IMG/VR virus record: IMGVR_UViG_3300010346_001536
Length of the DNA stretch: 64,000 nt
DNA from: a virus
Taxonomy: Duplodnaviria; Caudoviricetes
Reading direction: 5' to 3' (one strand)
A program made the position numbers and the translations under genes. Each line of letters starts with the position of its first letter. Positions within the stretch are counted from its first letter, which is position 1. The notes beneath the pieces were generated by a model, which was given only the letters and a program-made list of their open reading frames with translations, did not search any database and was not told the DNA's origin. Positions 1,742 through 59,462 of the stretch are shown here, one piece after another.

Positions 1742-2707
1742 ATGATTATTAATCCGTTTGAATTTGTTGAGATGGAAGAGCTTCCTTCGGTTCCTGACCA
1801 CAGCCTTTGGGCCGAACGTTATCGTCCCCGTACTCTTAAAAATTTTGTCGGCAGTCCTTCGGTCTGTGAAACTTTAGAAATATGGTTAGAAAGTAAAGAT
1901 ATACCACATCTTTTATTTTTTGGCTGGCCCGGGACTGGTAAAACTTCTTTAGGAAAAATGCTTATTAATTTAATCCCGTGTGATAGTTTGTTTATTAATG
2001 CATCGGATGAAAATAAAGTAGATGATATTAGAAATAAAGTACAAGATTTTTGTATTACTATGGGAGTTAATCCTTTAAAAATTATGTTTTTGGATGAGGC
2101 AGACCGTTTAACCCCCGATGCTCAAGGTGTACTTCGTAATTTAATGGAAACTTATTCGCATTCGACGCGCTTTATTTTAACGTGTAATTATCATGAAAAA
2201 ATAGCGCCGGCCATTAAGTCTCGGTGTCAAAGTTTTGAAATAAAGCCTCCGTCTAAGCCTGAACTTATGTCTCATCTTATTAAAATTTTAAATAAAGAAA
2301 AAATAAATTATGAGAATAAGGATGTAGCATTTATTGTAACCAGTTATTATCCCGATATGCGAAAAATGATTAATTTCATGCAACAATCTTCGCTTACTGG
2401 AACATTAAAAATAGCAAAAGCTAGTACGGATGACCAAGATTACCGCGAAAAACTTGTTAAGCTTTTACAACAGCCGAAAAAGGCGGGTATTTTTGATGAA
2501 ATTCGACAATTGGTAGCAGACGCGGCTTTTTCTAATTATGAAGAAGTTTATAAATATCTTTTTGACCGCGTAAATGATTATGCCGGAGAAAAAGCTCCAG
2601 AAATTATTCTGTATCTTGCAGACGCCGTATATCAATCTGCTTTAGTGTTTGAACGAGAAATTACTTTTGTAGCATCTATGCATCGAATACTTGGTGCTCT
2701 TAAATAA
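1742..2707 (+). CDS. clamp loader AAA+ subunit (RFC small subunit / T4 gp44-like)
   Basis: WAERYRP, Walker A GWPGTGKT, NASD, Walker B LDEAD, SRC motif. Confidence 0.95.
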   Translation: MIINPFEFVEMEELPSVPDHSLWAERYRPRTLKNFVGSPSVCETLEIWLESKDIPHLLFFGWPGTGKTSLGKMLINLIPCDSLFINASDENKVDDIRNKVQDFCITMGVNPLKIMFLDEADRLTPDAQGVLRNLMETYSHSTRFILTCNYHEKIAPAIKSRCQSFEIKPPSKPELMSHLIKILNKEKINYENKDVAFIVTSYYPDMRKMINFMQQSSLTGTLKIAKASTDDQDYREKLVKLLQQPKKAGIFDEIRQLVADAAFSNYEEVYKYLFDRVNDYAGEKAPEIILYLADAVYQSALVFEREITFVASMHRILGALK

Positions 2708-2791
2708 GATGTACATATTTAAAAGCTTTAAGGTAAATTACTTAAAAATAATTTTATAATAAATTGACTCCCCCGTAAGGAGTGATAAAAT

Positions 2792-3070
2792 ATGCTCAAT
2801 ATGAATAAGCCTAATGTAAAACATATACCAATGGAACAAAAAAAAGCAATACTTACCGAAACGGTTGAAGTTTTTGGACAACAAGAGTGGTTTAGAGATG
2901 CAACAGTATATGATGCTCACCCAAATACCGGCGAACCAACTCTCGAGTTTAAAGTAAATTATGTTCCTATTTTAGGAATTATCCGCAAAACTATTATAGA
3001 TTTTGCAATAAAACATAATTTGGTTGAACGTTTTGTTATTATTGATAAAGATGGACGCCCTGTAGAGTAA
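2792..3070 (+). CDS. hypothetical protein (start may be 2801)
   Basis: ORF right after TTGACT-N16-TAAAAT promoter at 2764-2791. Confidence 0.7.
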   Translation: MLNMNKPNVKHIPMEQKKAILTETVEVFGQQEWFRDATVYDAHPNTGEPTLEFKVNYVPILGIIRKTIIDFAIKHNLVERFVIIDKDGRPVE

Positions 3071-3122
3071 TAATATTTGTAAAGAATTGTTACTTTAAAT
3101 AACATGGGAATACGGGTAGTTT

Positions 3123-4220
3123 ATGAGTAATAAATTGATTCCATCAATTTTAACTATTATTCCTAAGATTCCGCTTAAAGGGGTATATTATATTGGCCAG
3201 TATGGAACAAGTGGATATGCAAATGCTGCCCGGGGGTATTTATATCATTATTTTATTAATAATATTCCTATTACATGGGACCCCCTTTATTTTGATAATT
3301 CTAAACTAAGTGATGATAATCCATACGATATAGTTGTTCAATCATTAATAAATAAATCAATTCCTCTACATGATGTTGTTATTATACATTCTACCCCCGA
3401 CTTATGGCCAAAATTTTGGGAAGAAAAACTTGAAATTTTAAAGGGAAAAGTTATTAATGGTTATTGTACTTGGGAAACAAATCGTCTTCCTAAAGAATGG
3501 GTTAAATATATGAATGAATGTGTTAATGAAGTATGGTGCCCGTCTTCTTATAATTTAAATTCATTCCGAGAATCGGGAGTAAATAATACTATACGAGTAG
3601 TACCGCATATTTTTCTTCCTCATCCTCTCCCTGACCCGATGAATGTTAAACTAGTTGATATGCGGACCGGAAATCGATTAGAAAAAAATGGATACTATAC
3701 GTTTTATACGATAGGAGAGTTTAATATACGTAAAGGAATTGAGGATACAATACGGGCTTTTTGTGAAGGATTTAAACCTACCGACCCAGTACGGCTTATA
3801 CTTAAAGTTCATTATCGTAATTATTCGGATGAAAATAAGAAAAGATGTGAAGATATGATTAAGGAAGAACTTAAAAAATATCCTTCTTATCCTCCTATTA
3901 TTTGTTTATTAGAACCGATGACTTCAACTGAGATTCTTGCCCTCCATTCAATAGGCGACTGTTACGTGTCGCTTACAAAGGCCGAGGGGTTTGGGCTTAC
4001 TATATTCGATGCCTTTAACTATGGGAAAAACATTATTGCTACGGGCTATGGTGGGCACATTGATTTTTTGGGAGATTCGTATCCCGGCCTTGTTCACTAT
4101 AAAATAGGGCCAGTGGTAGGAATGTCAACTTTTTCTTCGAACTATACTGAGGAACAGTTGTGGGCCTATCCATGTCTTGACCATGCAATTAACCTAATGA
4201 AAAAACAAGCTAACTTATGA
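3123..4220 (+). CDS. GT-B (GT4-like) glycosyltransferase
   Basis: SGY..AAR start, TWET, RKG, EGFGLTIFDA, IATGYGGHIDF. Confidence 0.9.
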   Translation: MSNKLIPSILTIIPKIPLKGVYYIGQYGTSGYANAARGYLYHYFINNIPITWDPLYFDNSKLSDDNPYDIVVQSLINKSIPLHDVVIIHSTPDLWPKFWEEKLEILKGKVINGYCTWETNRLPKEWVKYMNECVNEVWCPSSYNLNSFRESGVNNTIRVVPHIFLPHPLPDPMNVKLVDMRTGNRLEKNGYYTFYTIGEFNIRKGIEDTIRAFCEGFKPTDPVRLILKVHYRNYSDENKKRCEDMIKEELKKYPSYPPIICLLEPMTSTEILALHSIGDCYVSLTKAEGFGLTIFDAFNYGKNIIATGYGGHIDFLGDSYPGLVHYKIGPVVGMSTFSSNYTEEQLWAYPCLDHAINLMKKQANL

Positions 4221-4867
4221 CTGGAATTTTTGCATTTAATGGAAACACTAAGCATCAACAAATTATAGATACTTACATAAAGCGACTAGCAATAGATACG
4301 GTAGTCGAGTCGGGCACTTTACATGGTTTCACCACTGCGTATTTTGCCGAGCGAGTGAAGGAAGTGTACACCGTTGAAATTCAGGAAAAATCATATCGAA
4401 TGGCACGGAATTTACTCAGACAGTTTCGTAACGTTCATCAGGAACTTGGCGCTTCCCCCGCTTACTTCAATACGCTTCTGCCGACTCTTGATGGGAGAAA
4501 GATTCTGTTTTACCTTGACGCTCATTGGTTTGAGCCGTGGCCTCTGTTCGAAGAAATGAATGCCATTGCCAAGCACATCGGAAAACGGGCTGTAGTACTA
4601 ATTGACGACTTCCAGGTTCCCAACAGTCGATGTCGGTTTGACCAGTATGGCGGGGTAATAAACAATTTTGCCACATCCGAACCATACTTCAATAAGATTT
4701 ATGGGGAGCGGGGGTATGTGTATGATTATTTGGGCGGCGATGCAACACAGGAATTTATTATTAACGAATCGGAATTGGACTCCGACACTCTTCCTTTTTA
4801 TCTTCAGAGTTACAAGGGTAAGCCGATTACCATTACTGGAAAAATTATCGTCTATGCAAAAGAATAA
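4217..4867 (+). CDS. class I SAM-dependent methyltransferase-like protein
   Basis: VESGT.HG.T, YTVEI, FYLDAHW, LIDD. Confidence 0.8.
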   Translation: MTGIFAFNGNTKHQQIIDTYIKRLAIDTVVESGTLHGFTTAYFAERVKEVYTVEIQEKSYRMARNLLRQFRNVHQELGASPAYFNTLLPTLDGRKILFYLDAHWFEPWPLFEEMNAIAKHIGKRAVVLIDDFQVPNSRCRFDQYGGVINNFATSEPYFNKIYGERGYVYDYLGGDATQEFIINESELDSDTLPFYLQSYKGKPITITGKIIVYAKE

Positions 4868-5510
4868 ATATGTGTCCCAATGTGGGCAGGACAAGTGTGT
4901 CATTGAGGAAATTTACAAAGGATTGACGCATGGGTTTTTTGTTGACTTGGGAGCGGGCGATGGTATCCAATTGTCAAACACCTATGTCCTTGAAACGGAA
5001 TATGAATGGGATGGTATTTGTGTAGAACCCAACACTTATTCCTTTGAAAGCCTTAAGAAAAATCGAAAGTGTCGACTCGAAAACAGCTTCGTGCTTGATG
5101 GGGTGAGAGAAGTCGCGTTCCATCAGTACTATGGAAACCCGCCCCATTGGGAATCCTTCTCGTCAATGTATCCTTCGCCATTTCACGAAGAGATGGACGT
5201 CGTAAAGAAATCCGTTATCATGTGTAAGTCTATATCATTGGGACAGTTACTAACAAAGCATGGCGCACCGAATTTGATTCATTATCTTTCTGTGGACACC
5301 GAATATACGGACTACGAAATTCTCGAACACTTCTTCACAAAAGAACTTGGCGAAAGAGCTATCATATGTTTATCGGTGGAACACAACTTCAAGGAAGTTC
5401 GAGAGAAGCTTAGGACTTTGCTTGGAACTTATAGATTTACTTTCTATAAGGAACTGTATCAGGATGATATGTATATAAATAATGACTTTTGGAATCTTCC
5501 CAATCTATGA
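4854..5510 (+). CDS. FkbM-family methyltransferase
   Basis: SQCGQD, FFVDLGAGDG..LSNT..LE, GICVEPN, YLSVDTE; start placed at ATG 4854. Confidence 0.9.
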   Translation: MQKNKYVSQCGQDKCVIEEIYKGLTHGFFVDLGAGDGIQLSNTYVLETEYEWDGICVEPNTYSFESLKKNRKCRLENSFVLDGVREVAFHQYYGNPPHWESFSSMYPSPFHEEMDVVKKSVIMCKSISLGQLLTKHGAPNLIHYLSVDTEYTDYEILEHFFTKELGERAIICLSVEHNFKEVREKLRTLLGTYRFTFYKELYQDDMYINNDFWNLPNL

Positions 5511-6433
5511 ACGTCCATCTCCGAATAAACTATGGGTGTGATAAACGATTCTACCTTACGAAGGACACTATCCGCCTTTGTCATCCATACTTTGAGACTA
5601 TCAGGGTTTTGGTAACGTCCGACGAATCTGACTATCAAATGTTGAAGTCGTTGGAATCGGAGTATCCGAAGCTGAAGGTCACGAAGACGGCCATTCCTTA
5701 TTACGGGGATTTTGAATCCGTGCATCGAAATCTATTGTGGGATGTCCCCGAGGACGAGTGGATTCATTTGCTAGATTCAGATGAACGTCCAACCTATCAA
5801 TTTTTGACTGGCTTGCAGGACATGATATCCGACGCCATAGCAAATGGAGTTAACACATGTCGTATTCCATCCATTTCACATTACATGAAGTCAAATGAGT
5901 TTTGTGATAAGAATTATAAGAACGCTTTTGCGGGAAAGGCTAAGTACTATGAGCCATCTTTATTTAAATACAATAGGTATAAGAACACGTACAGAAGCAG
6001 CTTTGGTGGGTGTCATTCCATGCCAGCAAGGATAGATAGGGTGGAGAAGAGATATATCTTACCAACATTACACTTCAAAAATCCTATAAATTGGTATCAG
6101 GCGTTTATCCTACAGGGGTTTTTCAATCCAACTGTTCATTCGCGGACGGAAGAGCGAGAATGTCTCATAAAGTCTTCAGAATACGCCGCGTTTGAGGCAT
6201 TGAAAAAGGAAACAAAATGTTTTGATTCAACCACATTTATATCCCAGCTGTCTATCGACCCCGAGTTCAAGCAGAAATTTCATGACCTTTTTTTAACTTT
6301 TAAGGAGTCTAAATTTCCAATTTTCCAGTTTGCATACAAATGGGTTGCTAATGAGAATTTCAGACTAATGATTTTTGAAAAGCAGGAATTCTGCGGAAAG
6401 GTCTGTTGTAAGTATGGGGATATACAATTATGA
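5507..6433 (+). CDS. GT-A (GT2-like) glycosyltransferase
   Basis: F..HRN, W..LLDSDE DxD motif; ATGA overlap with the upstream gene. Confidence 0.7.
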   Translation: MNVHLRINYGCDKRFYLTKDTIRLCHPYFETIRVLVTSDESDYQMLKSLESEYPKLKVTKTAIPYYGDFESVHRNLLWDVPEDEWIHLLDSDERPTYQFLTGLQDMISDAIANGVNTCRIPSISHYMKSNEFCDKNYKNAFAGKAKYYEPSLFKYNRYKNTYRSSFGGCHSMPARIDRVEKRYILPTLHFKNPINWYQAFILQGFFNPTVHSRTEERECLIKSSEYAAFEALKKETKCFDSTTFISQLSIDPEFKQKFHDLFLTFKESKFPIFQFAYKWVANENFRLMIFEKQEFCGKVCCKYGDIQL

Positions 6434-7491
6434 AAATACTAATGACGTTTGAACTCGGAGCAATTGCTGTTTATGCAACGCCGCTGATAAAGTTATTGTC
6501 CTCTCGGGGGCATTCTATAGATTTTTATACAACCGACCGAAGAGGATTTTGTGACCCCGGAGACGAGATACGTAAATCTGTCACCATGCTCAATGCTCCT
6601 CCTGTAGATATGAGATATGATTTGTGGATGTATGACCTATCTACATGGGAAACAAAACAAACTCCATTTCTGGAAAAGCTTACGGAGTTCGAAGGAGACT
6701 TAGTATGCATCAATTTTGAAGATGGAAATCAATTCTTTCTTAATTATATTACGGGGTACATCATTGACAAGACAAAGCTATACATAAATAATTCTCTTTT
6801 TGTGGACCGGGGAAGATACCCCGAAAATATACGGTCTAAACTCATGTTGGCCCCGTCCTACATAACCAATAGTCAGAGTTTCAAGACATTGGTTGTTCCC
6901 TTCAGGGACAAGCAAAGGCGAGCCATATTTACAGGAAATATTACGGGAATGAGCGAAAGTGGAAATCCCGAAGAACTTAAATGTCGAATCCTTGTTCCAA
7001 TGGCGTTGATAAAGGCGGGCGTGCCTTGCTACTACCGTATCTATTCTTCCGACCCCAACTACCAGAGCGTCTTGGAAAAGGTGCCCGAGCAATATAAGAG
7101 TCAGCATCTTAAATGGGAAGACTTCTTGAAAGAAACAGTGAACAGTATGATTGTCCTCTCATTGAGGGGAAATGGTCATACAGTTCGGAGATACTTTGAG
7201 GGGCTGGCTTCGGGCGGATTGGTATTCTCCACGAGGTCAAATCATATGACTGAGTTCATTGGTCAGGGTGTAGCGGGAGAGCACTTCGTAGAAATAGACT
7301 GGTCGGGGAACGATGTGGTTGAGAAGGCCAATTACTATTTCGAGCGCACCGAGGAGGCCGAAAAAATTGCTGCTTGTGGAAGAAAGTTTTGGGAAGACAC
7401 TAGTATGTTGGATGACAATGGGGTGGTTCCTCCGAAGGTTGCGAACGAAATAATCAACAACGCCAAACGAATTGCGGGGATTGAATTTTGA
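6430..7491 (+). CDS. GT-B glycosyltransferase-like protein (GT90/CAP10-like C-terminus)
   Basis: AIFTG, LSLRGNG..RYFE, HFVEI...D, AEKIA..GRKF. Confidence 0.65.
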   Translation: MKILMTFELGAIAVYATPLIKLLSSRGHSIDFYTTDRRGFCDPGDEIRKSVTMLNAPPVDMRYDLWMYDLSTWETKQTPFLEKLTEFEGDLVCINFEDGNQFFLNYITGYIIDKTKLYINNSLFVDRGRYPENIRSKLMLAPSYITNSQSFKTLVVPFRDKQRRAIFTGNITGMSESGNPEELKCRILVPMALIKAGVPCYYRIYSSDPNYQSVLEKVPEQYKSQHLKWEDFLKETVNSMIVLSLRGNGHTVRRYFEGLASGGLVFSTRSNHMTEFIGQGVAGEHFVEIDWSGNDVVEKANYYFERTEEAEKIAACGRKFWEDTSMLDDNGVVPPKVANEIINNAKRIAGIEF

Positions 7492-12967: not shown

Positions 12968-13652
12968 ATGAAAATTAGATTAAAAAACAATGGTGAATGG
13001 ACTCTTTTTGAAGGGAAAGAGCTTCAAAAAAAAACTGTTTGACCAACAGATTAACATTTTTGAACGAGTAAGTATAGCGGACGGAGTTAAACTTAATGGT
13101 CTTGTTACCATTGGAAGCGGGTGTATTATCGAACGTGAAACTGAAATTGGTGAAAGAACTGTCATTGAGGCAGATTCTATTATTCGAGAAGGTTGTATTA
13201 TTCGAAGCAATTCACATATTTGGCATAATGTTAATATTGGAAATAATTGTCAAATTGGACAAGGTGCATCGATTTGTGCTAGCTCTATTCTTCGCAATAA
13301 CGTTATAATTGGCAATTATTGTACTGTTGGGGCAAATGCATATATATCTGAATATTCTCAGGTAAAAGATGCTATATCTGTTCCAGCTTCTGCTCATATA
13401 ATTGGAGCAGCTTATTTGCAACGCCCCCGCGATTGTATGGTTATATCCCCTTCGTTTTTAGATGGAGGACAATCCGTCTTTACGCTTACATTATATCGAG
13501 ATTTTGATAATGATATACAAATAGTTTCTGCGGTTACTCCTGGTAAAATTTGGTCATTTAAAACGAAAGGATATGAACCATTTGAAAAATATCCTTATTT
13601 ATTATCTTTTATTAAGAGTGCCATAGAACAGATGGAAATAAATTTTTTCTAA
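12968..13652 (+). CDS. left-handed beta-helix (hexapeptide repeat) protein, apparently frameshifted at an A9 run
   Basis: [IV]G-type hexapeptide repeats in 12990..13652; frame from ATG 12968 stops at 13042 but joins if A9 (13026-13034) is read as A8. Confidence 0.65.
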
Positions 13653-51901: not shown

Positions 51902-54280
51902 ATGATACCAAACGAAACATTACAAGAAGTATCTTCAATTGGACCGCTGGTTCCAGTCACTGAATTTCGCTTGACTCAAAGTACTCAAGCTCGAATTCTA
52001 TCAACATTGTCGGACAACATATATACTCGTAAATCCTTAGCCGTTATACGAGAATATAGTACTAATGCTGCTGATGCCCATGTTGTTGCCGGTAAACCCA
52101 TTGACCGAATCGAGGTTACTCTTCCTACGATGGATAATCTTAACTTTCGAATCCGAGATTATGGACATGGTTTGTCAGATACGGAGTTTAAAGATATTTT
52201 TTGCGTTTTTGGAGAATCAAGCAAGCGCACGGACAATCGTCTGAATGGAGTTCTCGGCTATGGATGTAAGGCGGGATTTGCTCATGCTGATACATTTACG
52301 ATAACTTCATGGAATAATGGAGTAAAAACCATTTATCAATGTATTAAGGGAGATTCTACCAAACTACCCGGCGTTATTCAACTGGAGAGTTGCCCTAGTG
52401 CGGAGCCTAGTGGCATCGAAGTCATGGTCCCCGTTAAAGTTGATGCTTGGCACTCGTTTCATCTCGATGCCATCGAGTTTTATCGCCACTGGCCTGTAAT
52501 GCCAACTATTAAGGGGTTAGACGACGTAAAACTTGAAAAGCTAAATAAATATCGTAACGTCCCACCCTCCCTTAAGGGGGAAAATTGGGAAATTCGACCT
52601 CCCGCAGGTTCGGCTAAGGGGATTGCTTATATGGGATGGGTTCCATATACTATTGATTGGAATGTTCTATATCATAAAATGGCCCTGGATGCCAAATCTC
52701 GCGCTCTGTTCGAATTGCTGAGAAGTAATGATGTCATTCTTTATTTTCAATTAGGAGATGTTGAATTTGTAACTTCGCGGGAAAGTCTTGAATATACCGA
52801 AAAAACTATTAATATTTTAAAGTCTCGCATTGAAGAAATTTTTGCTAAAATCAAAGATTCCATTCAAGAAAAATTTACTGATTTGCCTACAATTTGGGAT
52901 GCTAAAATTATGTATAATTCTATTTTTAGCACGGGATACCTTGAACTTGAAAGTAGTGAAAATGACGACGAAATTATTGAAAATATAAAGATTTTGAATG
53001 GAAATCTGTCACAATTAGAAAACACATTTAAAGGTGCTTTTTCATGGAAAGGTATTACTCTTGATGGAGCATCTTTTACTAATCTTCATCGGTTTGATAA
53101 TTCCAACCCGTCGTCTCTTATAGAAGATGGCAAATCACCAGAATCTCCGGTTCTTGTAACTTATCGTAAGAAACGGAGCCGGGTAATAGTCAACCGCTGT
53201 GATAGGTATAGTAATAATATTATTACGGCTTCCAATTCGGTTTTGGTGGTAGAAAATGATACGGGTCGTAAAATTGGACAGCAAATGGTAGCTCGATATC
53301 TTATTCATGGAGCACCCAAACCCTATAAAATTGTATATTTTCTTTCTTTTACGAATAAGAACGTTAGGGATTTGTTTTTCAAAGAGAATCATTTTGAAAC
53401 GGTTCCTGTTTCTAAGATGTCTGACCTTTGGCCTACGGCTAAGCAGTGGCAAACGAATAATAAAACTCATCGAGAGGCTAAAGGGGAAAGAGTCAGTGTT
53501 TACTCTGTAAAATATATTAATATCGAAGGCGAAAATATTGAAGAGGATAAACTTTCTTCTCAAGAAATCAAAGAGGGCGGAGTTTATGTTTTGTTGGATT
53601 CAGTAGTCCATCGACGACGCCGGTATCTTTCTTCCAGGCCAGTTTATTATGTTAAAGGTCTCAATTACCATGTAATTGATGCTAATATGAACCTTTGTCA
53701 TTTTAAAACGGTTGTTGAAGAATTGGACTTAGATGTAGATAAAATTTTTATTATTAATAACAAAACTCTTAATTCAAAGTGGTTTGATAAAAACATCAAA
53801 TCGGGAAATTGGATAGATTTTTGGACTTTGGTAAAGGAAAACAGTTCTAATTTTTCTACTAAAGTCGATAAATTAATAGACTTTGGGCATTACAAAGATG
53901 GTTTGATGTGCCAAACGGCCGCTCGTATGCTTTTGCCGATGATTAGAGATAATACTACTCATCTCAGTAAGTATATTGATAAGATAAGCAGTTTTGATAT
54001 TAAAACGATTGATTCTATTAAACATGCTTTAGTTGCTTTTACTAGCTTGAATATATTGAGCATCATTAAGGGGGAGAATACGGGAACATATGATTTTAAG
54101 ACGGCATCTCAATATATTAAAGAAAAGTATCCGCTAGTTAATTGGGATAACCTAGCGTATAAAAGCGAAGTCAATTCCGAACTCATAATTAATATTGCTA
54201 AGTACATTAATGCGATGGATATGTATGTTAATTCAACTCATGGTACTGAGCCCATTGAAAAAATTTCTTCGGAAGAATGA
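51902..54280 (+). CDS. rIIA: rIIA-like protein (GHKL/HATPase N-terminus)
   Basis: LS..IY, A.IREY.TNA.DAH, IRDYG.GLS, ES.KR..N...G.LG.G.K, SRE.L; precedes rIIB; promoter at 51851-51878. Confidence 0.85.
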   Translation: MIPNETLQEVSSIGPLVPVTEFRLTQSTQARILSTLSDNIYTRKSLAVIREYSTNAADAHVVAGKPIDRIEVTLPTMDNLNFRIRDYGHGLSDTEFKDIFCVFGESSKRTDNRLNGVLGYGCKAGFAHADTFTITSWNNGVKTIYQCIKGDSTKLPGVIQLESCPSAEPSGIEVMVPVKVDAWHSFHLDAIEFYRHWPVMPTIKGLDDVKLEKLNKYRNVPPSLKGENWEIRPPAGSAKGIAYMGWVPYTIDWNVLYHKMALDAKSRALFELLRSNDVILYFQLGDVEFVTSRESLEYTEKTINILKSRIEEIFAKIKDSIQEKFTDLPTIWDAKIMYNSIFSTGYLELESSENDDEIIENIKILNGNLSQLENTFKGAFSWKGITLDGASFTNLHRFDNSNPSSLIEDGKSPESPVLVTYRKKRSRVIVNRCDRYSNNIITASNSVLVVENDTGRKIGQQMVARYLIHGAPKPYKIVYFLSFTNKNVRDLFFKENHFETVPVSKMSDLWPTAKQWQTNNKTHREAKGERVSVYSVKYINIEGENIEEDKLSSQEIKEGGVYVLLDSVVHRRRRYLSSRPVYYVKGLNYHVIDANMNLCHFKTVVEELDLDVDKIFIINNKTLNSKWFDKNIKSGNWIDFWTLVKENSSNFSTKVDKLIDFGHYKDGLMCQTAARMLLPMIRDNTTHLSKYIDKISSFDIKTIDSIKHALVAFTSLNILSIIKGENTGTYDFKTASQYIKEKYPLVNWDNLAYKSEVNSELIINIAKYINAMDMYVNSTHGTEPIEKISSEE

Positions 54281-54336
54281 AGAAAAAATCTAAAGTACTG
54301 GCTTGACAAATTAAAAAACTGGAGTATATTAACGCT

Positions 54337-56115
54337 ATGATTAAATCTATTGTAAGAACGCAAAATACTATTGTGGTGGTAGATGAGCTCGGGGTAAAAA
54401 CCGCTCGTGCAGACCATCCAAAGTGGAAAGAACTCAATGTAATTTTTGATTGTATTGATTGTAAAGATGGTGAATTTGTTGGTCCAGTCGATACTTTGTT
54501 AACCCTGATGGACATTCGCTCCGCCATCGAGCTTTATACAGATGAATTTCTTTCTGTTAATGAGACGGGAGTAACCTATGCCGGGCATCCTATTCATACC
54601 GTTGATGCTGAGCGGTTGTTGGCTTTTATGCGGGAGGGACTAAACTATAGGCCGATTGCCAATTATATTAAACGCAAGATGAAGAATCCATCTTCCCGGG
54701 CTATTTCGGAAATGTATAATTTCCTTGAACATAAGAATATGCCGCTTACTCCCCGGGGAACGTTTATTGCCTATAAAGGCGTGAGTATGGACTTTTGGTC
54801 TGTTTATGGAAATAAAGATACGGTTGTACTTCAGGGAAAGGTAAATTCTGAGGGTAAAATTCTTAATGCAATTGGTTCAACTATTGAAGTCGCTCGCTCT
54901 TCTGTGGACGATGATTTTCGAGTTGGTTGTTCACATGGTTTGCATGTTGGTTCGCTTGAATACGCCTCGCGGTGGGGGCAGCGGGTGGTCCTTGTCGAAG
55001 TGGACCCGGCCGATGTCGTTTCTGTACCCGAAGATTGCAGTTGCCAAAAACTTCGCTGCTGCAAATACACCGTAGTTTCCGAATATACTGGCCCAATGCC
55101 GGACACCCTTACTACTGAATTCGAATCCGAAGAAAATGGGGATGGAGATGAGAATGATGACGACGAAGCGTTTGATGACGACGAAGCGTTTGATGACGAC
55201 GAAGCGTTTGATGACGACGATGAGTCTGATGACGACGATGAGTCTGCCGACGACGATGAGTCTGCCGACGACGATGAGTCTGCCGACGACGATTTTTTAA
55301 AAAATTGGTGTGCGGACTGCGGATATCACGTGGATAAATGCGAGTGCCAAAAAAAGTGTCCTGAATGCGAATGTAATCCCGACAATTCTAATGACCCCCC
55401 CGGTGACGGCACAATACCCGAGGACCATTTTTTAAAGCGGTGTGCGGATTGCGGATTTCATGAGGATAAATGCGAGTGCGACGAAAAAAAGTGTCCTAAA
55501 TGTGGACAAGACTCGGAATATTGTGGGTGTGACCCGGACGGAGAATGCCCTGTTTGCGGCCATCACATGGACTGCTGCGAATGCGATTATGAAGAGTGCT
55601 CTAAATGCGGAAAACACCCCGACTATTGTGAATGTGAAAAGAGTTCAGAATGTAATACCCAAAACAAAGATTGTAATACTAAAGAGGATGTAAACCCTTC
55701 GAATGAATCGTCGAAAGATTTTAATTCTATGAAGGATATTTTTCCTGGTATAATTCAAGAAAAATCCACCGAAGATTCGTGTGTAAAATTTGAAGAGGGC
55801 AAAGTGATTCCAATTTTTTCTCAGATTACTTATGACCGTTTAGTATCTATTATTAGTGATGAAACGGGTATTTCAAAAGAACTTCTATTACCTAATAAAC
55901 GTATTATTATAGATTCTTTTGAATGGCTTGATATTATATTGGATATTGAAGATACATTCGATATTGAAATTTCTGCCGAAGAAGAAAGCAAATTTATTCA
56001 TAGCACGGTAGCGGAAATATGTAATCATATTGACCGTCGTGTTGAAGAGCAAAAGGCAAACAAAAATAACACTCCTACTGTTGGCCAAAAACCTTCTGGT
56101 TTGAGAGAAGAATAA
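54337..56115 (+). CDS. rIIB: rIIB-like protein with acidic repeat, Cys-rich repeats and C-terminal ACP-like domain
   Basis: NPS.RA..E.Y.FL, LT..G.FIAYKGV, CS.GLH.GS..YA, V.VDPADVVSVP.D....KLR.C.Y.V. Confidence 0.85.
   Translation: MIKSIVRTQNTIVVVDELGVKTARADHPKWKELNVIFDCIDCKDGEFVGPVDTLLTLMDIRSAIELYTDEFLSVNETGVTYAGHPIHTVDAERLLAFMREGLNYRPIANYIKRKMKNPSSRAISEMYNFLEHKNMPLTPRGTFIAYKGVSMDFWSVYGNKDTVVLQGKVNSEGKILNAIGSTIEVARSSVDDDFRVGCSHGLHVGSLEYASRWGQRVVLVEVDPADVVSVPEDCSCQKLRCCKYTVVSEYTGPMPDTLTTEFESEENGDGDENDDDEAFDDDEAFDDDEAFDDDDESDDDDESADDDESADDDESADDDFLKNWCADCGYHVDKCECQKKCPECECNPDNSNDPPGDGTIPEDHFLKRCADCGFHEDKCECDEKKCPKCGQDSEYCGCDPDGECPVCGHHMDCCECDYEECSKCGKHPDYCECEKSSECNTQNKDCNTKEDVNPSNESSKDFNSMKDIFPGIIQEKSTEDSCVKFEEGKVIPIFSQITYDRLVSIISDETGISKELLLPNKRIIIDSFEWLDIILDIEDTFDIEISAEEESKFIHSTVAEICNHIDRRVEEQKANKNNTPTVGQKPSGLREE
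55156..55293 (+). repeat. 18-bp tandem repeat, ~7.7 units (DDDEAF x3, DDDDES x2, ADDDES x2+)
   Basis: GATGACGACGAAGCGTTT x3, then GATGACGACGATGAGTCT x2 and GCCGACGACGATGAGTCT x2. Confidence 0.95.
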
Positions 56116-56168
56116 CATACCTTCCAAAGGAAGAACAGTACTCGTTTTATAGCGTTCACGAGACTGTT

Positions 56169-56206
56169 GGCGAGGAGACTTCCCCCCTGTGTCTCCTCGC
56201 CTTTTT
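56169..56206 (+). terminator. intrinsic terminator after rIIB
   Basis: GGCGAGGAGAC / GTCTCCTCGCC 11-bp stem followed by TTTTT. Confidence 0.9.
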
Positions 56207-56774: not shown

Positions 56775-57587
56775 ATGTATAAACACAACGTTCATCTTAT
56801 TTCTATAGATTGTCAAAACGATTTTTGTATTCCCAATGGCCCGGGCGGAGAAAAAGGCTCTTTAGTAATCGCCGGAGCCGACCAAGATATGGTTCGATTG
56901 GGAGAATTTATTTCTCAAAACAAAACTCGCATCAATCAAATTCATTGTACTTTAGATTCCCATCAATATGTACATATTGCTCATCCTGCTTTCTGGATAA
57001 ATTCTAACGGGGACCATCCCAAACCATTTACGTTAATTTCCGAAGATGATATAAAAAATGGTGTATGGCGAGCGTTTAATACAACATGGCAAGATAGAGC
57101 CAAATCTTACATTGAAACTCTTGCTCGAAATGGACGATATATTCTATGTATTTGGCCGCCTCATTGTCTCATTGGTACATGGGGTCATTCAATTGTCCCC
57201 GTAGTTTCCAAGGCCCTATATGAATGGGAAGCCCAATTCAATCGGGTTAATTTTATTACCAAAGGTACGAATTTATTTACTGAACATTATTCTGCGGTTC
57301 AGGCAGATGTTCCTGATAATGATGACCCCAGTACAAAATTAAATACTGCTTTTATTGATATGCTTGCTAAAGCGGATGAAATCCTTATTTCAGGAGAAGC
57401 ATTATCTCATTGTGTTGCTAATACTATTCGCGATATAGCGGCCCATTTGGGGACCGACCAAGTACAAAAGTTTACATTTCTGGAAGATACTTCATCAAGT
57501 GTTTGTGGATTTGAACAATTGGGAAGAGATTTTATCAATGAAATGGTTAATAAAGGAATGAAAATTACTAATACAAAAGAATGGTAA
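56775..57587 (+). CDS. pncA: nicotinamidase (isochorismatase/cysteine hydrolase family)
   Basis: IDCQNDFC, GSL...GA, TLDSH, WPPHC..GT.GH, KG.N..TEHYSA, GEA.SHCV. Confidence 0.8.
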   Translation: MYKHNVHLISIDCQNDFCIPNGPGGEKGSLVIAGADQDMVRLGEFISQNKTRINQIHCTLDSHQYVHIAHPAFWINSNGDHPKPFTLISEDDIKNGVWRAFNTTWQDRAKSYIETLARNGRYILCIWPPHCLIGTWGHSIVPVVSKALYEWEAQFNRVNFITKGTNLFTEHYSAVQADVPDNDDPSTKLNTAFIDMLAKADEILISGEALSHCVANTIRDIAAHLGTDQVQKFTFLEDTSSSVCGFEQLGRDFINEMVNKGMKITNTKEW

Positions 57588-57615
57588 TTTATTAATATAT
57601 TGTCCCCTTTGAAAT

Positions 57616-57939
57616 ATGTTGGCATATAAATTATTTCGCAAACGAAAAAACGGGACTTTGGGTCCATTATTTATTAATCGGCCCCAAATTATAATTCCTA
57701 ATATGTGGTTACCTGCCAAAGCATATAAAACCAAAGGTTATTCCTATCGGCCTGGATGGCACTGTTGTTATAAACCCAATGCTCCTCATCTTAAAATGGA
57801 AGGTCGAGTATGGTGTCTTGTTGAAATTGAAGACTGGGTCGAAATTTACCGCCCCGAATCTCAAGGTGGATTGTGGTATCTTTCACAATGGATAAAATTA
57901 TTGAAAGAAACTGATTATACTCATGAATATAAAATATGA
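57616..57939 (+). CDS. conserved phage hypothetical protein
   Basis: AYKLFR, L.PLFIN, RPGWH...P.APHL, RVW..VE, QGG.W. Confidence 0.7.
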   Translation: MLAYKLFRKRKNGTLGPLFINRPQIIIPNMWLPAKAYKTKGYSYRPGWHCCYKPNAPHLKMEGRVWCLVEIEDWVEIYRPESQGGLWYLSQWIKLLKETDYTHEYKI

Positions 57940-58256
57940 AATATAAAACTATGAAATATAAAACTATAAAACATAAACCATTAAAGTGTATTGATTGTGA
58001 TTGTTATCCTTGGGATATAGGAGAGGATTTTCTTGTTAATGATGGATTATGGATATTTACCATGCCCATTAATAAACGAAACGGCATTATTTGTATAAAA
58101 TGTTTTGAAAAACGATTGGGTCGTAAATTAAAAAGAAAAGATTTCAAATCTTGGTTTCGAAATAACCGATGGTATGGCGACCGCCGCCGCAAACTGAATA
58201 ATCCCCCGTCTGATTTGTTAATTAATAGATTAAATTTGTACCAAAATAAAATTTGA
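57936..58256 (+). CDS. Zn-binding hypothetical protein
   Basis: C.DC, F.V.D.LW, ICIKCFEKRLGR.L..DF. Confidence 0.7.
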   Translation: MKYKTMKYKTIKHKPLKCIDCDCYPWDIGEDFLVNDGLWIFTMPINKRNGIICIKCFEKRLGRKLKRKDFKSWFRNNRWYGDRRRKLNNPPSDLLINRLNLYQNKI

Positions 58257-58286
58257 CTTTTTAACTTTGTAATATATGATGATACT

Positions 58287-59462
58287 ATGAAAAATAATAT
58301 TGATATTAATGAACCAATTATTACATCTTTCTTAGATGATGATTTGTATAAAATTACTATGGGGTCAGTTGTATTTCATACTTTTCCTCGTGCTTATGTT
58401 ATATATAATTTATACAATCGGGTAAAAGTACCATTTCCTCCGGGATTTGAAGCGGCTTTACGTCGGCAAATTAATTATGTTTCTAATTTGCGAATGACTC
58501 CCGAGGAAGCGAATTGGCTTAGAACTATTTCTTATATACGTCCTACTTATATCTCATGGCTCGAAAATTATCAGATGAATCCCGATGAAGTAATAACTTC
58601 TCAAATGGGAGATTATTTGCATGTAGAAATCGAGGGTCCTTGGTATAGAACAATTTTCTGGGAAGTTAAACTCATGGCTATTATTTCTGAGTTGTATTAT
58701 CGAATGACTAATCAAAGTCCTGATGATAAGTGGATTGAACGAATTAAAAATAAAGCCGAAAAACTTTCCAATGCTGAGTGTCATTGGATTGATTTTGGAA
58801 CCCGCCGGCGTTATAGCTTAGCAGTGCAACAAAAGCTAGTAGAAATTATGAAGAATTACAAAGGATTTCTAGGAACAAGCAATCCTTACTTGGCTTTTAA
58901 ATTTGGTGTAACTCCACACGGTACATATGCTCATGAGTGTATTATGGCGATGAGTGCCTTATATGGACCTAGAATGGCAGATAAAATGTGGCGTAAACAT
59001 TGGGTTGACCATTATCAAGGAAATGTCGGGGTGGCTCTAACAGATACCTTTACCAGTAAAATTTTCTGGAATGATTTTGATTCTTATGATGCTCGTCTTT
59101 TTGATGGGTGTCGTCAAGATAGTGGAAATGAATATACCTGGGGAACCGATATGATTGACCACTACCGACGCCTAGGAATTCCGGTGAGTAACAAACGCAT
59201 GATATTTAGTAATAACTTAGATACAGATAAATATATAAGTATTGACCGCTACTTTCGTAAATATGCCCAGCCCTGCGGCGGCATTGGAACTCATTTTACC
59301 AATGATGTAGGAGTTAATCCTTTAAACATAGTTATTAAAATGAACAGGGCTAATTTTGGTATTGGTTGGTTGCCTGTGACCAAACTAACCGATGATGTAA
59401 CAAAACAACTGGCTTATCCAGAGTTTATTGATTTAATTAAAAAACAATTAAACATGGTATAA
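58287..59462 (+). CDS. pncB: nicotinate phosphoribosyltransferase
   Basis: LDDDLYKITM, WEV.LMA.ISE, DFGTRRRYS, GTSN, GT.AHE, LTDTF, RQDSG, GIGT.FTND, PLNIVIK. Confidence 0.93.
   Translation: MKNNIDINEPIITSFLDDDLYKITMGSVVFHTFPRAYVIYNLYNRVKVPFPPGFEAALRRQINYVSNLRMTPEEANWLRTISYIRPTYISWLENYQMNPDEVITSQMGDYLHVEIEGPWYRTIFWEVKLMAIISELYYRMTNQSPDDKWIERIKNKAEKLSNAECHWIDFGTRRRYSLAVQQKLVEIMKNYKGFLGTSNPYLAFKFGVTPHGTYAHECIMAMSALYGPRMADKMWRKHWVDHYQGNVGVALTDTFTSKIFWNDFDSYDARLFDGCRQDSGNEYTWGTDMIDHYRRLGIPVSNKRMIFSNNLDTDKYISIDRYFRKYAQPCGGIGTHFTNDVGVNPLNIVIKMNRANFGIGWLPVTKLTDDVTKQLAYPEFIDLIKKQLNMV

Follow-up and report, generated by a model that had tools for sequence, protein, structure and literature searches.

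The rIIA and rIIB genes are among the oldest genes of molecular genetics. Growth of phage T4 on RexAB hosts requires both of them, and the mode of RexAB inhibition has been stated to be unclear (PMC13716836); in addition, RIIB alone triggers a gasdermin defense system of Lysobacter (PMC10312443). Here, we analyzed the rIIB gene of an uncultured tailed phage (Caudoviricetes; IMG/VR record IMGVR_UViG_3300010346_001536, a 138-kb fragment estimated to cover 39% of the genome) in a stretch of 64,000 nucleotides, hereafter the window. Positions 54337 to 56115 of the window (+ strand) encode a 592-aa protein plus the stop codon, in a frame that is open across all 592 codons, with no frameshift. Like T4 RIIB, the protein matches rIIB profiles, here over the N-terminal 253 residues, and its gene lies behind rIIA and points the same way, an arrangement shared with T4-like phages. 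However, whereas every other deposited rIIB protein, the T4 type included, ends soon after residue ~255, this protein (the query in the comparisons below) adds ~330 residues, including a C-terminal domain of 74 residues (496 to 569; positions 55822 to 56043, + strand) that resembles an acyl carrier protein (ACP) with its phosphopantetheine-binding (PP-binding) site. We find that such fusions recur in a large group of uncultured phages, and that the domain may serve mainly for docking.

A predicted acyl carrier protein fold at the C terminus of rIIB

An earlier note made from the sequence alone had recognized an ACP-like peptide with an intact serine site in the rIIB frame at positions 55825 to 56043. 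The peptide is present exactly as quoted, inside the open reading frame (ORF) 54337 to 56115, and so is the serine: GAT-TCT at positions 55912 to 55917 encodes Asp526-Ser527, with the TCT codon (55915 to 55917, + strand) at the phosphopantetheine-Ser position. Against the Pfam PP-binding model (PF00550, cut-off 20.8 bits), the isolated 73 aa scored 21.6 bits (E 2.7e-4), the whole protein 15.2, and a six-frame search of the genome 18.1. The NCBIfam ACP models matched the segment with a best E of 1.3e-7, but at 20 to 32 bits versus cut-offs of 66 to 84. PHROG 5934 ("acyl carrier protein") matched the domain with an E of 2.8e-5, the top phmmer matches in the Protein Data Bank (PDB) were ACPs only (best 2ehs, E 1.3e-4), and the ACP domains of rIIB homologues, combined into a profile, gave 35 bits (E 5.8e-11) over residues 496 to 569. 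The equivalog models for AcpP stayed below their cut-offs (best 31.7 bits versus 66; TIGR00517, 23.3 versus 70.45), which rules the domain out as an AcpP orthologue.

The AlphaFold2 model of residues 479 to 592 (mean predicted local distance difference test [pLDDT] 84) contains the four helices expected of an ACP (I, 496 to 510; II, 527 to 541; III, 547 to 553; IV, 558 to 577), with a pLDDT of 91 to 97 over the domain; helix II starts with Ser527. When this model was compared with the PDB by Foldseek, ACPs were returned with a probability of 1.00, a target-normalized template modeling (TM) score of 0.8 to 0.87, and a root mean square deviation (rmsd) of 0.9 to 1.4 Å (~1.1 Å). The predicted fold is the four-helix fold of bacterial AcpP (TIGR00517, PF00550; 2ehs, 1f80, 1l0i), at an rmsd of ~1.1 Å over 73 to 78 residues; also shared are an Asp-Ser pair where helix II begins, the acidic helix II, and conserved core Phe and Ile residues. 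The two differ in that identity is only 22 to 28%, AcpP is free-standing whereas the domain here is fused, and the query has Trp, Phe, and Asp where AcpP has small or aliphatic residues. In the full-length model, two confident domains are joined by ~230 low-confidence residues (predicted TM score 0.48; pLDDT <50 across residues 267 to 314 and 434 to 490), which suggests that the ACP is an independent bead on a long string. Taken together, the profile matches and the predicted structure confirm that the C-terminal domain is a genuine ACP-fold domain fused to rIIB, with a likeness beyond chance.

Distribution of the rIIB-ACP fusion

A search of 5.8 billion proteins returned 309 homologues of the rIIB-ACP protein, the best 120 of which were used for all family comparisons (91 ACP domains including that of the query). 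Most of these 120 are listed with both PF26926 and PF00550, and many are labeled "acyl carrier protein" by JGI; the fusion is visible in public metagenome annotation. Of these 120 metagenomic proteins, 90 have an ACP domain by our own profile; fusions in related phages, which the earlier note had suggested looking for, do exist. Their domains always come in one order, with the rIIB core first, at least one CxxCG..CxC unit after it, and the ACP behind that. The contigs carrying these homologues reach 200 to 400 kb, which, together with a 138-kb record rated at 39% of a genome, points to giant phages. Judged from these sequences, the fusion is not peculiar to this phage; it is what a large clade of uncultured phages, most of them giant, normally encodes.

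Deposited phage genomes gave a different picture. The claim that T4-type rIIB has no such domain held throughout 50,697 deposited phage records, where no rIIB carried an ACP domain; 2,508 deposited records matched the rIIB-ACP protein, all of them confined to residues 1 to 255 at ~30% identity. No match to the query C terminus was found by tblastn in the 50,697 records, and the ACP plus tail of a canonical relative, compared with deposited phages, retrieved nine free-standing phage ACPs, none of them inside a rIIB gene. In IMG/VR, the ACP was present in only two distinct records among the 80 best rIIB loci, and a full-text literature search returned no paper describing a rIIB-ACP fusion.

Free-standing phage ACPs (PHROG 5934; e.g., Pseudomonas phage pf16 gp58 and Brevundimonas phage Bajun) have the DSLD motif and are encoded by separate genes. 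In pf16 (NC_041881.1), a cultured T4-like phage, the 163-aa ACP (5998 to 6489 of locus L088) combines GTDSLDNIE with an 85-aa extension, and five hypothetical genes over 3.7 kb separate its gene from rIIA-rIIB (2053 to 5432 of locus L089), which lies downstream in the same orientation. It is possible that this arrangement is a split form of the fusion. A separate rIIB clade (P0040, P0042, and P0043; 620 to 645 aa) has two tandem ACP-like domains, the better-scoring of which lacks the Ser and has Met or Asp instead.

Descent and divergence of this copy

In a tree of the rIIB core, which was made with FastTree only, the query falls in a clade with a support of 100, and 39 of the 40 clade members have an ACP with Ser. 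The metagenomic rIIB-ACP proteins (e.g., P0001 to P0039 and the genes at L002 and L009) belong to the same core clade, show the same domain order, and have the closest ACPs. The query ACP is nearest to those of its own rIIB clade (31 to 36% identity, with the common ending STVAEIC..I..R), which indicates that it was inherited from an ancestral rIIB-ACP fusion; independent acquisition of an ACP was ruled out because of this same similarity.

The inherited domain is nevertheless divergent for its level of rIIB identity. The rIIB core is 71 to 75% identical to its closest metagenomic homologues (~30% to rIIB of cultured phages); at 70 to 75% rIIB identity, ACP identity is 29.4% for pairs that include the query, compared with 43.7 ± 11% for other pairs. 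With a mean residual of -13, the query ranks fifth of 91, and 10 of the other 11 in the top 12 lack the Ser. The 74 other Ser-bearing relatives are close to uniform around the site (DSLD..E): D, S, and L occur in 74/74, the next D in 72/74, and the Glu of helix II in 73/74. The relatives read G.DSLD.VE and continue into a tail of ~49 residues; the query reads IIDSFEWLD, in which Phe replaces the Leu of DSL (DSFEWLD), its loop I is three residues shorter, and it has no such tail. At near-invariant positions, its substitutions are L to F, D to E, V to L, E to D, M to L, A to D, E to T, and D to A, and ~10 such positions are altered in total, including Met, Ala, Glu-Glu, Pro-Asp, and Glu residues beyond DSLD..E. 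Most of the substitutions are conservative, and the acidic pattern of helix II is kept (Asp526, Glu529, Asp532, Glu538, and Asp539).

The tail that follows the ACP in relatives (Y..G..DG..DR..P.YL.GD..GADS..H..YI.GY..GY) was detected with a tail profile in 116 of the 120 homologues, but this profile had no match in the query protein or in any of the six frames of the 138-kb record. In its place, there is a disordered C-terminal end of 23 aa (positions 56044 to 56112, + strand; pLDDT ~41 to 42 from residue 581 to the end). Residues 470 to 592 alone had no match among the 5.8 billion proteins. From these alignments, the query ACP is a degenerate outlier of its own clade. The conserved tail also ends related rIIB proteins that lack the ACP and is better conserved than the ACP, and shorter Y..GY..G repeats close many other rIIB proteins in IMG/VR.

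A proposed docking role for the ACP domain

The acidic face of helix II is the surface by which ACPs dock on partner enzymes. We infer, with a probability of about 0.5, that the ACP domain of this rIIB protein works mainly as a tethered docking module through this face, both the docking role and the partner being part of that inference. The ancestral rIIB-ACP fusion has drifted in this lineage, retaining the fold, the Asp-Ser, and the charge of helix II and losing near-invariant residues together with the tail. On its flexible linker of ~230 residues, made up of acidic repeats and zinc-knuckle-like units, the domain could move as an independent bead. Carrying the cofactor or not, it would direct rIIB, and rIIA along with it, to a protein with a basic surface patch to which ACP normally binds. 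The Foldseek matches include ACPs in bound form (8zkp, MmpL5/MmpS5-AcpM; 7bvc, EmbA-EmbB-AcpM; 5wlw, NFS1-ISD11-ACP), which indicates that the use of ACP as an accessory subunit exists. The comparison with ISD11/NFS1 and with AcpM on MmpL5/MmpS5 and EmbA-EmbB is an analogy of docking only; those ACPs are free proteins, and the mitochondrial ACP binds its LYR/ISD11-NFS1 partners through the acyl-pantetheine arm.

The history of the serine in the family favors docking. Of the 91 ACPs, 75 keep the Ser; the other 16 have Glu, Asp, Met, Leu, or Lys at this position, and the tree requires at least seven Ser changes, at least four of which are forced by well-supported branches. The 16 Ser-less relatives nevertheless retain the D..LD.VE pattern, and all of them (16/16) have the invariant helix II Glu. 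Since the Ser has been replaced in 16/91 while the acidic helix II was kept, the domain can be retained without the cofactor, and what is conserved in these copies would be a binding face rather than a cofactor. The earlier note had proposed either an ACP mimic or a truly pantetheinylated or acylated domain. The Asp-Ser is indeed present; as evidence of loading it is weak, because ACP identity is ~30% and the domain diverges to the extent seen in its Ser-less relatives. This copy amounts to a natural experiment in which fold, charge, and Ser are kept while the canonical loading motif and the tail are gone, and together with the Ser-less relatives it suggests docking, not acyl carriage, as the conserved role. 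The recurrent in-frame fusion also names a class of partners that can be assayed, namely ACP-binding proteins.

Four points weigh against docking as the main function: (i) the clade of the query keeps the Ser in 39/39 of its other ACP-bearing members, which, with the Asp-Ser found here, argues that the cofactor does matter in this clade; (ii) the replacements at contact positions are conservative (L to F, D to E, E to D, M to L), so a host AcpS might accept the domain; (iii) with a record that is 39% complete, a phage phosphopantetheinyl transferase (PPTase) or a partner could be encoded in the remainder; and (iv) the AlphaFold confidence over the domain partly reflects the alignment of canonical relatives.

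Alternative explanations

The main alternative is a true carrier. Ser527 would then be loaded by host AcpS or an enzyme of the Sfp type, and the domain would work in its holo or acylated form, be it as a lipidated membrane tether for rIIA/B, by donating or taking up acyl groups at the membrane, or by inserting its acyl-pantetheine arm into a partner in the manner of mitochondrial ACP and LYR proteins. The position of Asp-Ser at the N terminus of helix II fits this, as do the conservative nature of the substitutions around Ser527 and the Ser in 75/91 ACPs of the family, including all 39 others of the clade; moreover, canonical relatives pass the Pfam PP-binding cut-off (34.3 and 30.7 bits) and resemble ACPs of bacterial fatty acid synthesis. 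However, a single Ser retained at ~30% identity says little, ~10 near-invariant residues have changed at a rate like that of Ser-less copies, and the score of the domain (20 to 32 bits) is far from the ACP-model cut-offs of 66 to 84. The family has also replaced the Ser at least four times and still kept the domain. We consider a true carrier somewhat unlikely.

The gene content bears on the same question. Neither the 138-kb record nor the 353,772-bp genome of a related phage, complete according to CheckV, encodes a recognizable PPTase, AMP-binding enzyme, ketosynthase, or PlsC-type acyltransferase. This lack of phage loading enzymes, even in a complete relative, counts against a carrier and means that any loading of Ser527 would depend on the host. 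The only PPTase match, a 133-aa ORF in this complete relative (G001; 1162 to 1563 of locus L085, - strand), scored 12.5 bits (E 0.03) with PF01648; its N terminus, YTAKEALAKAW, resembles the KEAxxKA of AcpS, but the first half of AcpS is lacking, and the match is probably spurious. Hexapeptide-repeat transferases are present in both phages. The copy in the window (12990 to 13652) lies within a glycosylation block, and the LpxD, LpxA, NeuD, and GlmU models match it at about the same level, far short of their cut-offs; it could not be linked to the ACP. A host enzyme might load Ser527 with phosphopantetheine, but such loading is probably not essential.

A more specific proposal joins loading and docking: throughout a large group of wild giant phages, rIIB would act by way of the acyl-carrier network of the host, and the tethered ACP, loaded by host AcpS, would plug its acyl-pantetheine arm into a membrane-associated host or defense protein or compete with AcpP for it. 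We regard this as quite unlikely. If it were true, ACP binding would be part of the rII block of abortive-infection systems, and there would be a first biochemical handle on rII function. The earlier note had suggested a membrane anchor or a decoy for ACP-binding host or defense proteins; both are speculation, and both fit a docking module as well as a loaded carrier.

Another explanation is that this lineage is losing the C-terminal part of rIIB and that the ACP is a functionless, drifting remnant. The missing tail (present in 116/120 relatives), the accelerated divergence of the ACP, and a C terminus without a close relative among 5.8 billion proteins would all be expected of a remnant, and outright loss of the ACP has occurred at least seven times in the family by the well-supported-branch criterion. 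Base composition points the same way: the G+C content is 0.42 to 0.52 in the rIIB core and Cys-rich part (54350 to 55700) and 0.29 to 0.33 in the ACP part (55700 to 56150), the latter being the AT-rich background level of the surrounding genome (~0.30 to 0.38). On the other hand, the 592-codon frame has stayed open, the gene is followed by a clean terminator, the substitutions are mostly conservative and not random, and the hydrophobic core, helix boundaries, and charge pattern are intact in a domain whose predicted fold exceeds a pLDDT of 90. Decay without function therefore appears distinctly improbable.

An artefact, either a chimeric assembly or a chance likeness of an acidic amphipathic stretch to ACP, would fit the whole-protein Pfam score of 15.2 bits (cut-off 20.8), but it is close to refuted, and very improbable in our judgment, given the identical domain order of 90 metagenomic proteins that are independent and come from several sources, the agreement of five independent sequence libraries with the fold search, and an ACP that is most similar to those of its own rIIB clade.

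rIIB core, acidic repeats, and Cys-rich units

The rIIB core comprises residues 1 to 262 (54337 to 55122, + strand) and matches PHROG 609 over residues 6 to 253 (E 1.6e-49), as well as four further rIIB PHROGs. It has a pLDDT of 85 to 96 in the full-length AlphaFold model, and a Foldseek search with that model found no solved structure resembling this core. An acidic low-complexity linker follows (residues 263 to 320; 55123 to 55296, + strand), with 59% Asp plus Glu and a pLDDT <50. An 18-bp unit repeated in tandem at positions 55147 to 55293 (8.2 copies, 93% match) encodes its DDDEAF, DDDDES, and ADDDES repeats; the copy number may be unstable or may have been collapsed in assembly.

The Cys-rich region (residues 324 to 446; 55306 to 55674, + strand) contains five CxxCGxxxxxCxC units, at positions 55309 to 55347, 55441 to 55479, 55492 to 55530, 55546 to 55584, and 55597 to 55635. 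The homologue consensus has the same CxxCG..CxC unit, and the array of the query is the largest among the 121 proteins compared: 28 Cys residues follow the rIIB core here, in contrast to a median of 7 Cys and one unit in the relatives; five Cys4 units and long acidic repeats set this protein apart from relatives with about one unit. No match to this region was found in the Pfam scan, and its pLDDT is only 40 to 70; the units are probably zinc knuckles. A low-confidence linker (residues 447 to 495) leads from the Cys-rich region to the ACP.

Gene surroundings

The rIIA gene adjoins the rIIB-ACP gene upstream on the same strand (51902 to 54280, +), with a gap of 56 nt. It encodes 792 aa (PHROG 612, E 6e-90), including an N-terminal GHKL-type ATPase domain (Pfam HATPase_c_3, E 4e-8). 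The intergenic gap contains a promoter-like TTGACA-16-TATATT at positions 54303 to 54330. Downstream, 54 nt past the rIIB-ACP stop, begins an intrinsic-terminator-like hairpin (56169 to 56206, + strand; -23.5 kcal/mol, z -4.99) with an 11-bp G+C-rich stem followed by five U residues. The hairpin was missed by a simple terminator scan owing to its 11-nt loop and was confirmed by RNA folding, and it marks the real end of the rIIB-ACP gene. Next on the downstream side, positions 56775 to 59462 contain an isochorismatase/nicotinamidase-like gene (a weak match, 22 bits) and a nicotinate phosphoribosyltransferase gene (a clear match, E 4.5e-42), which together would form an NAD-salvage pair beside the rII genes.

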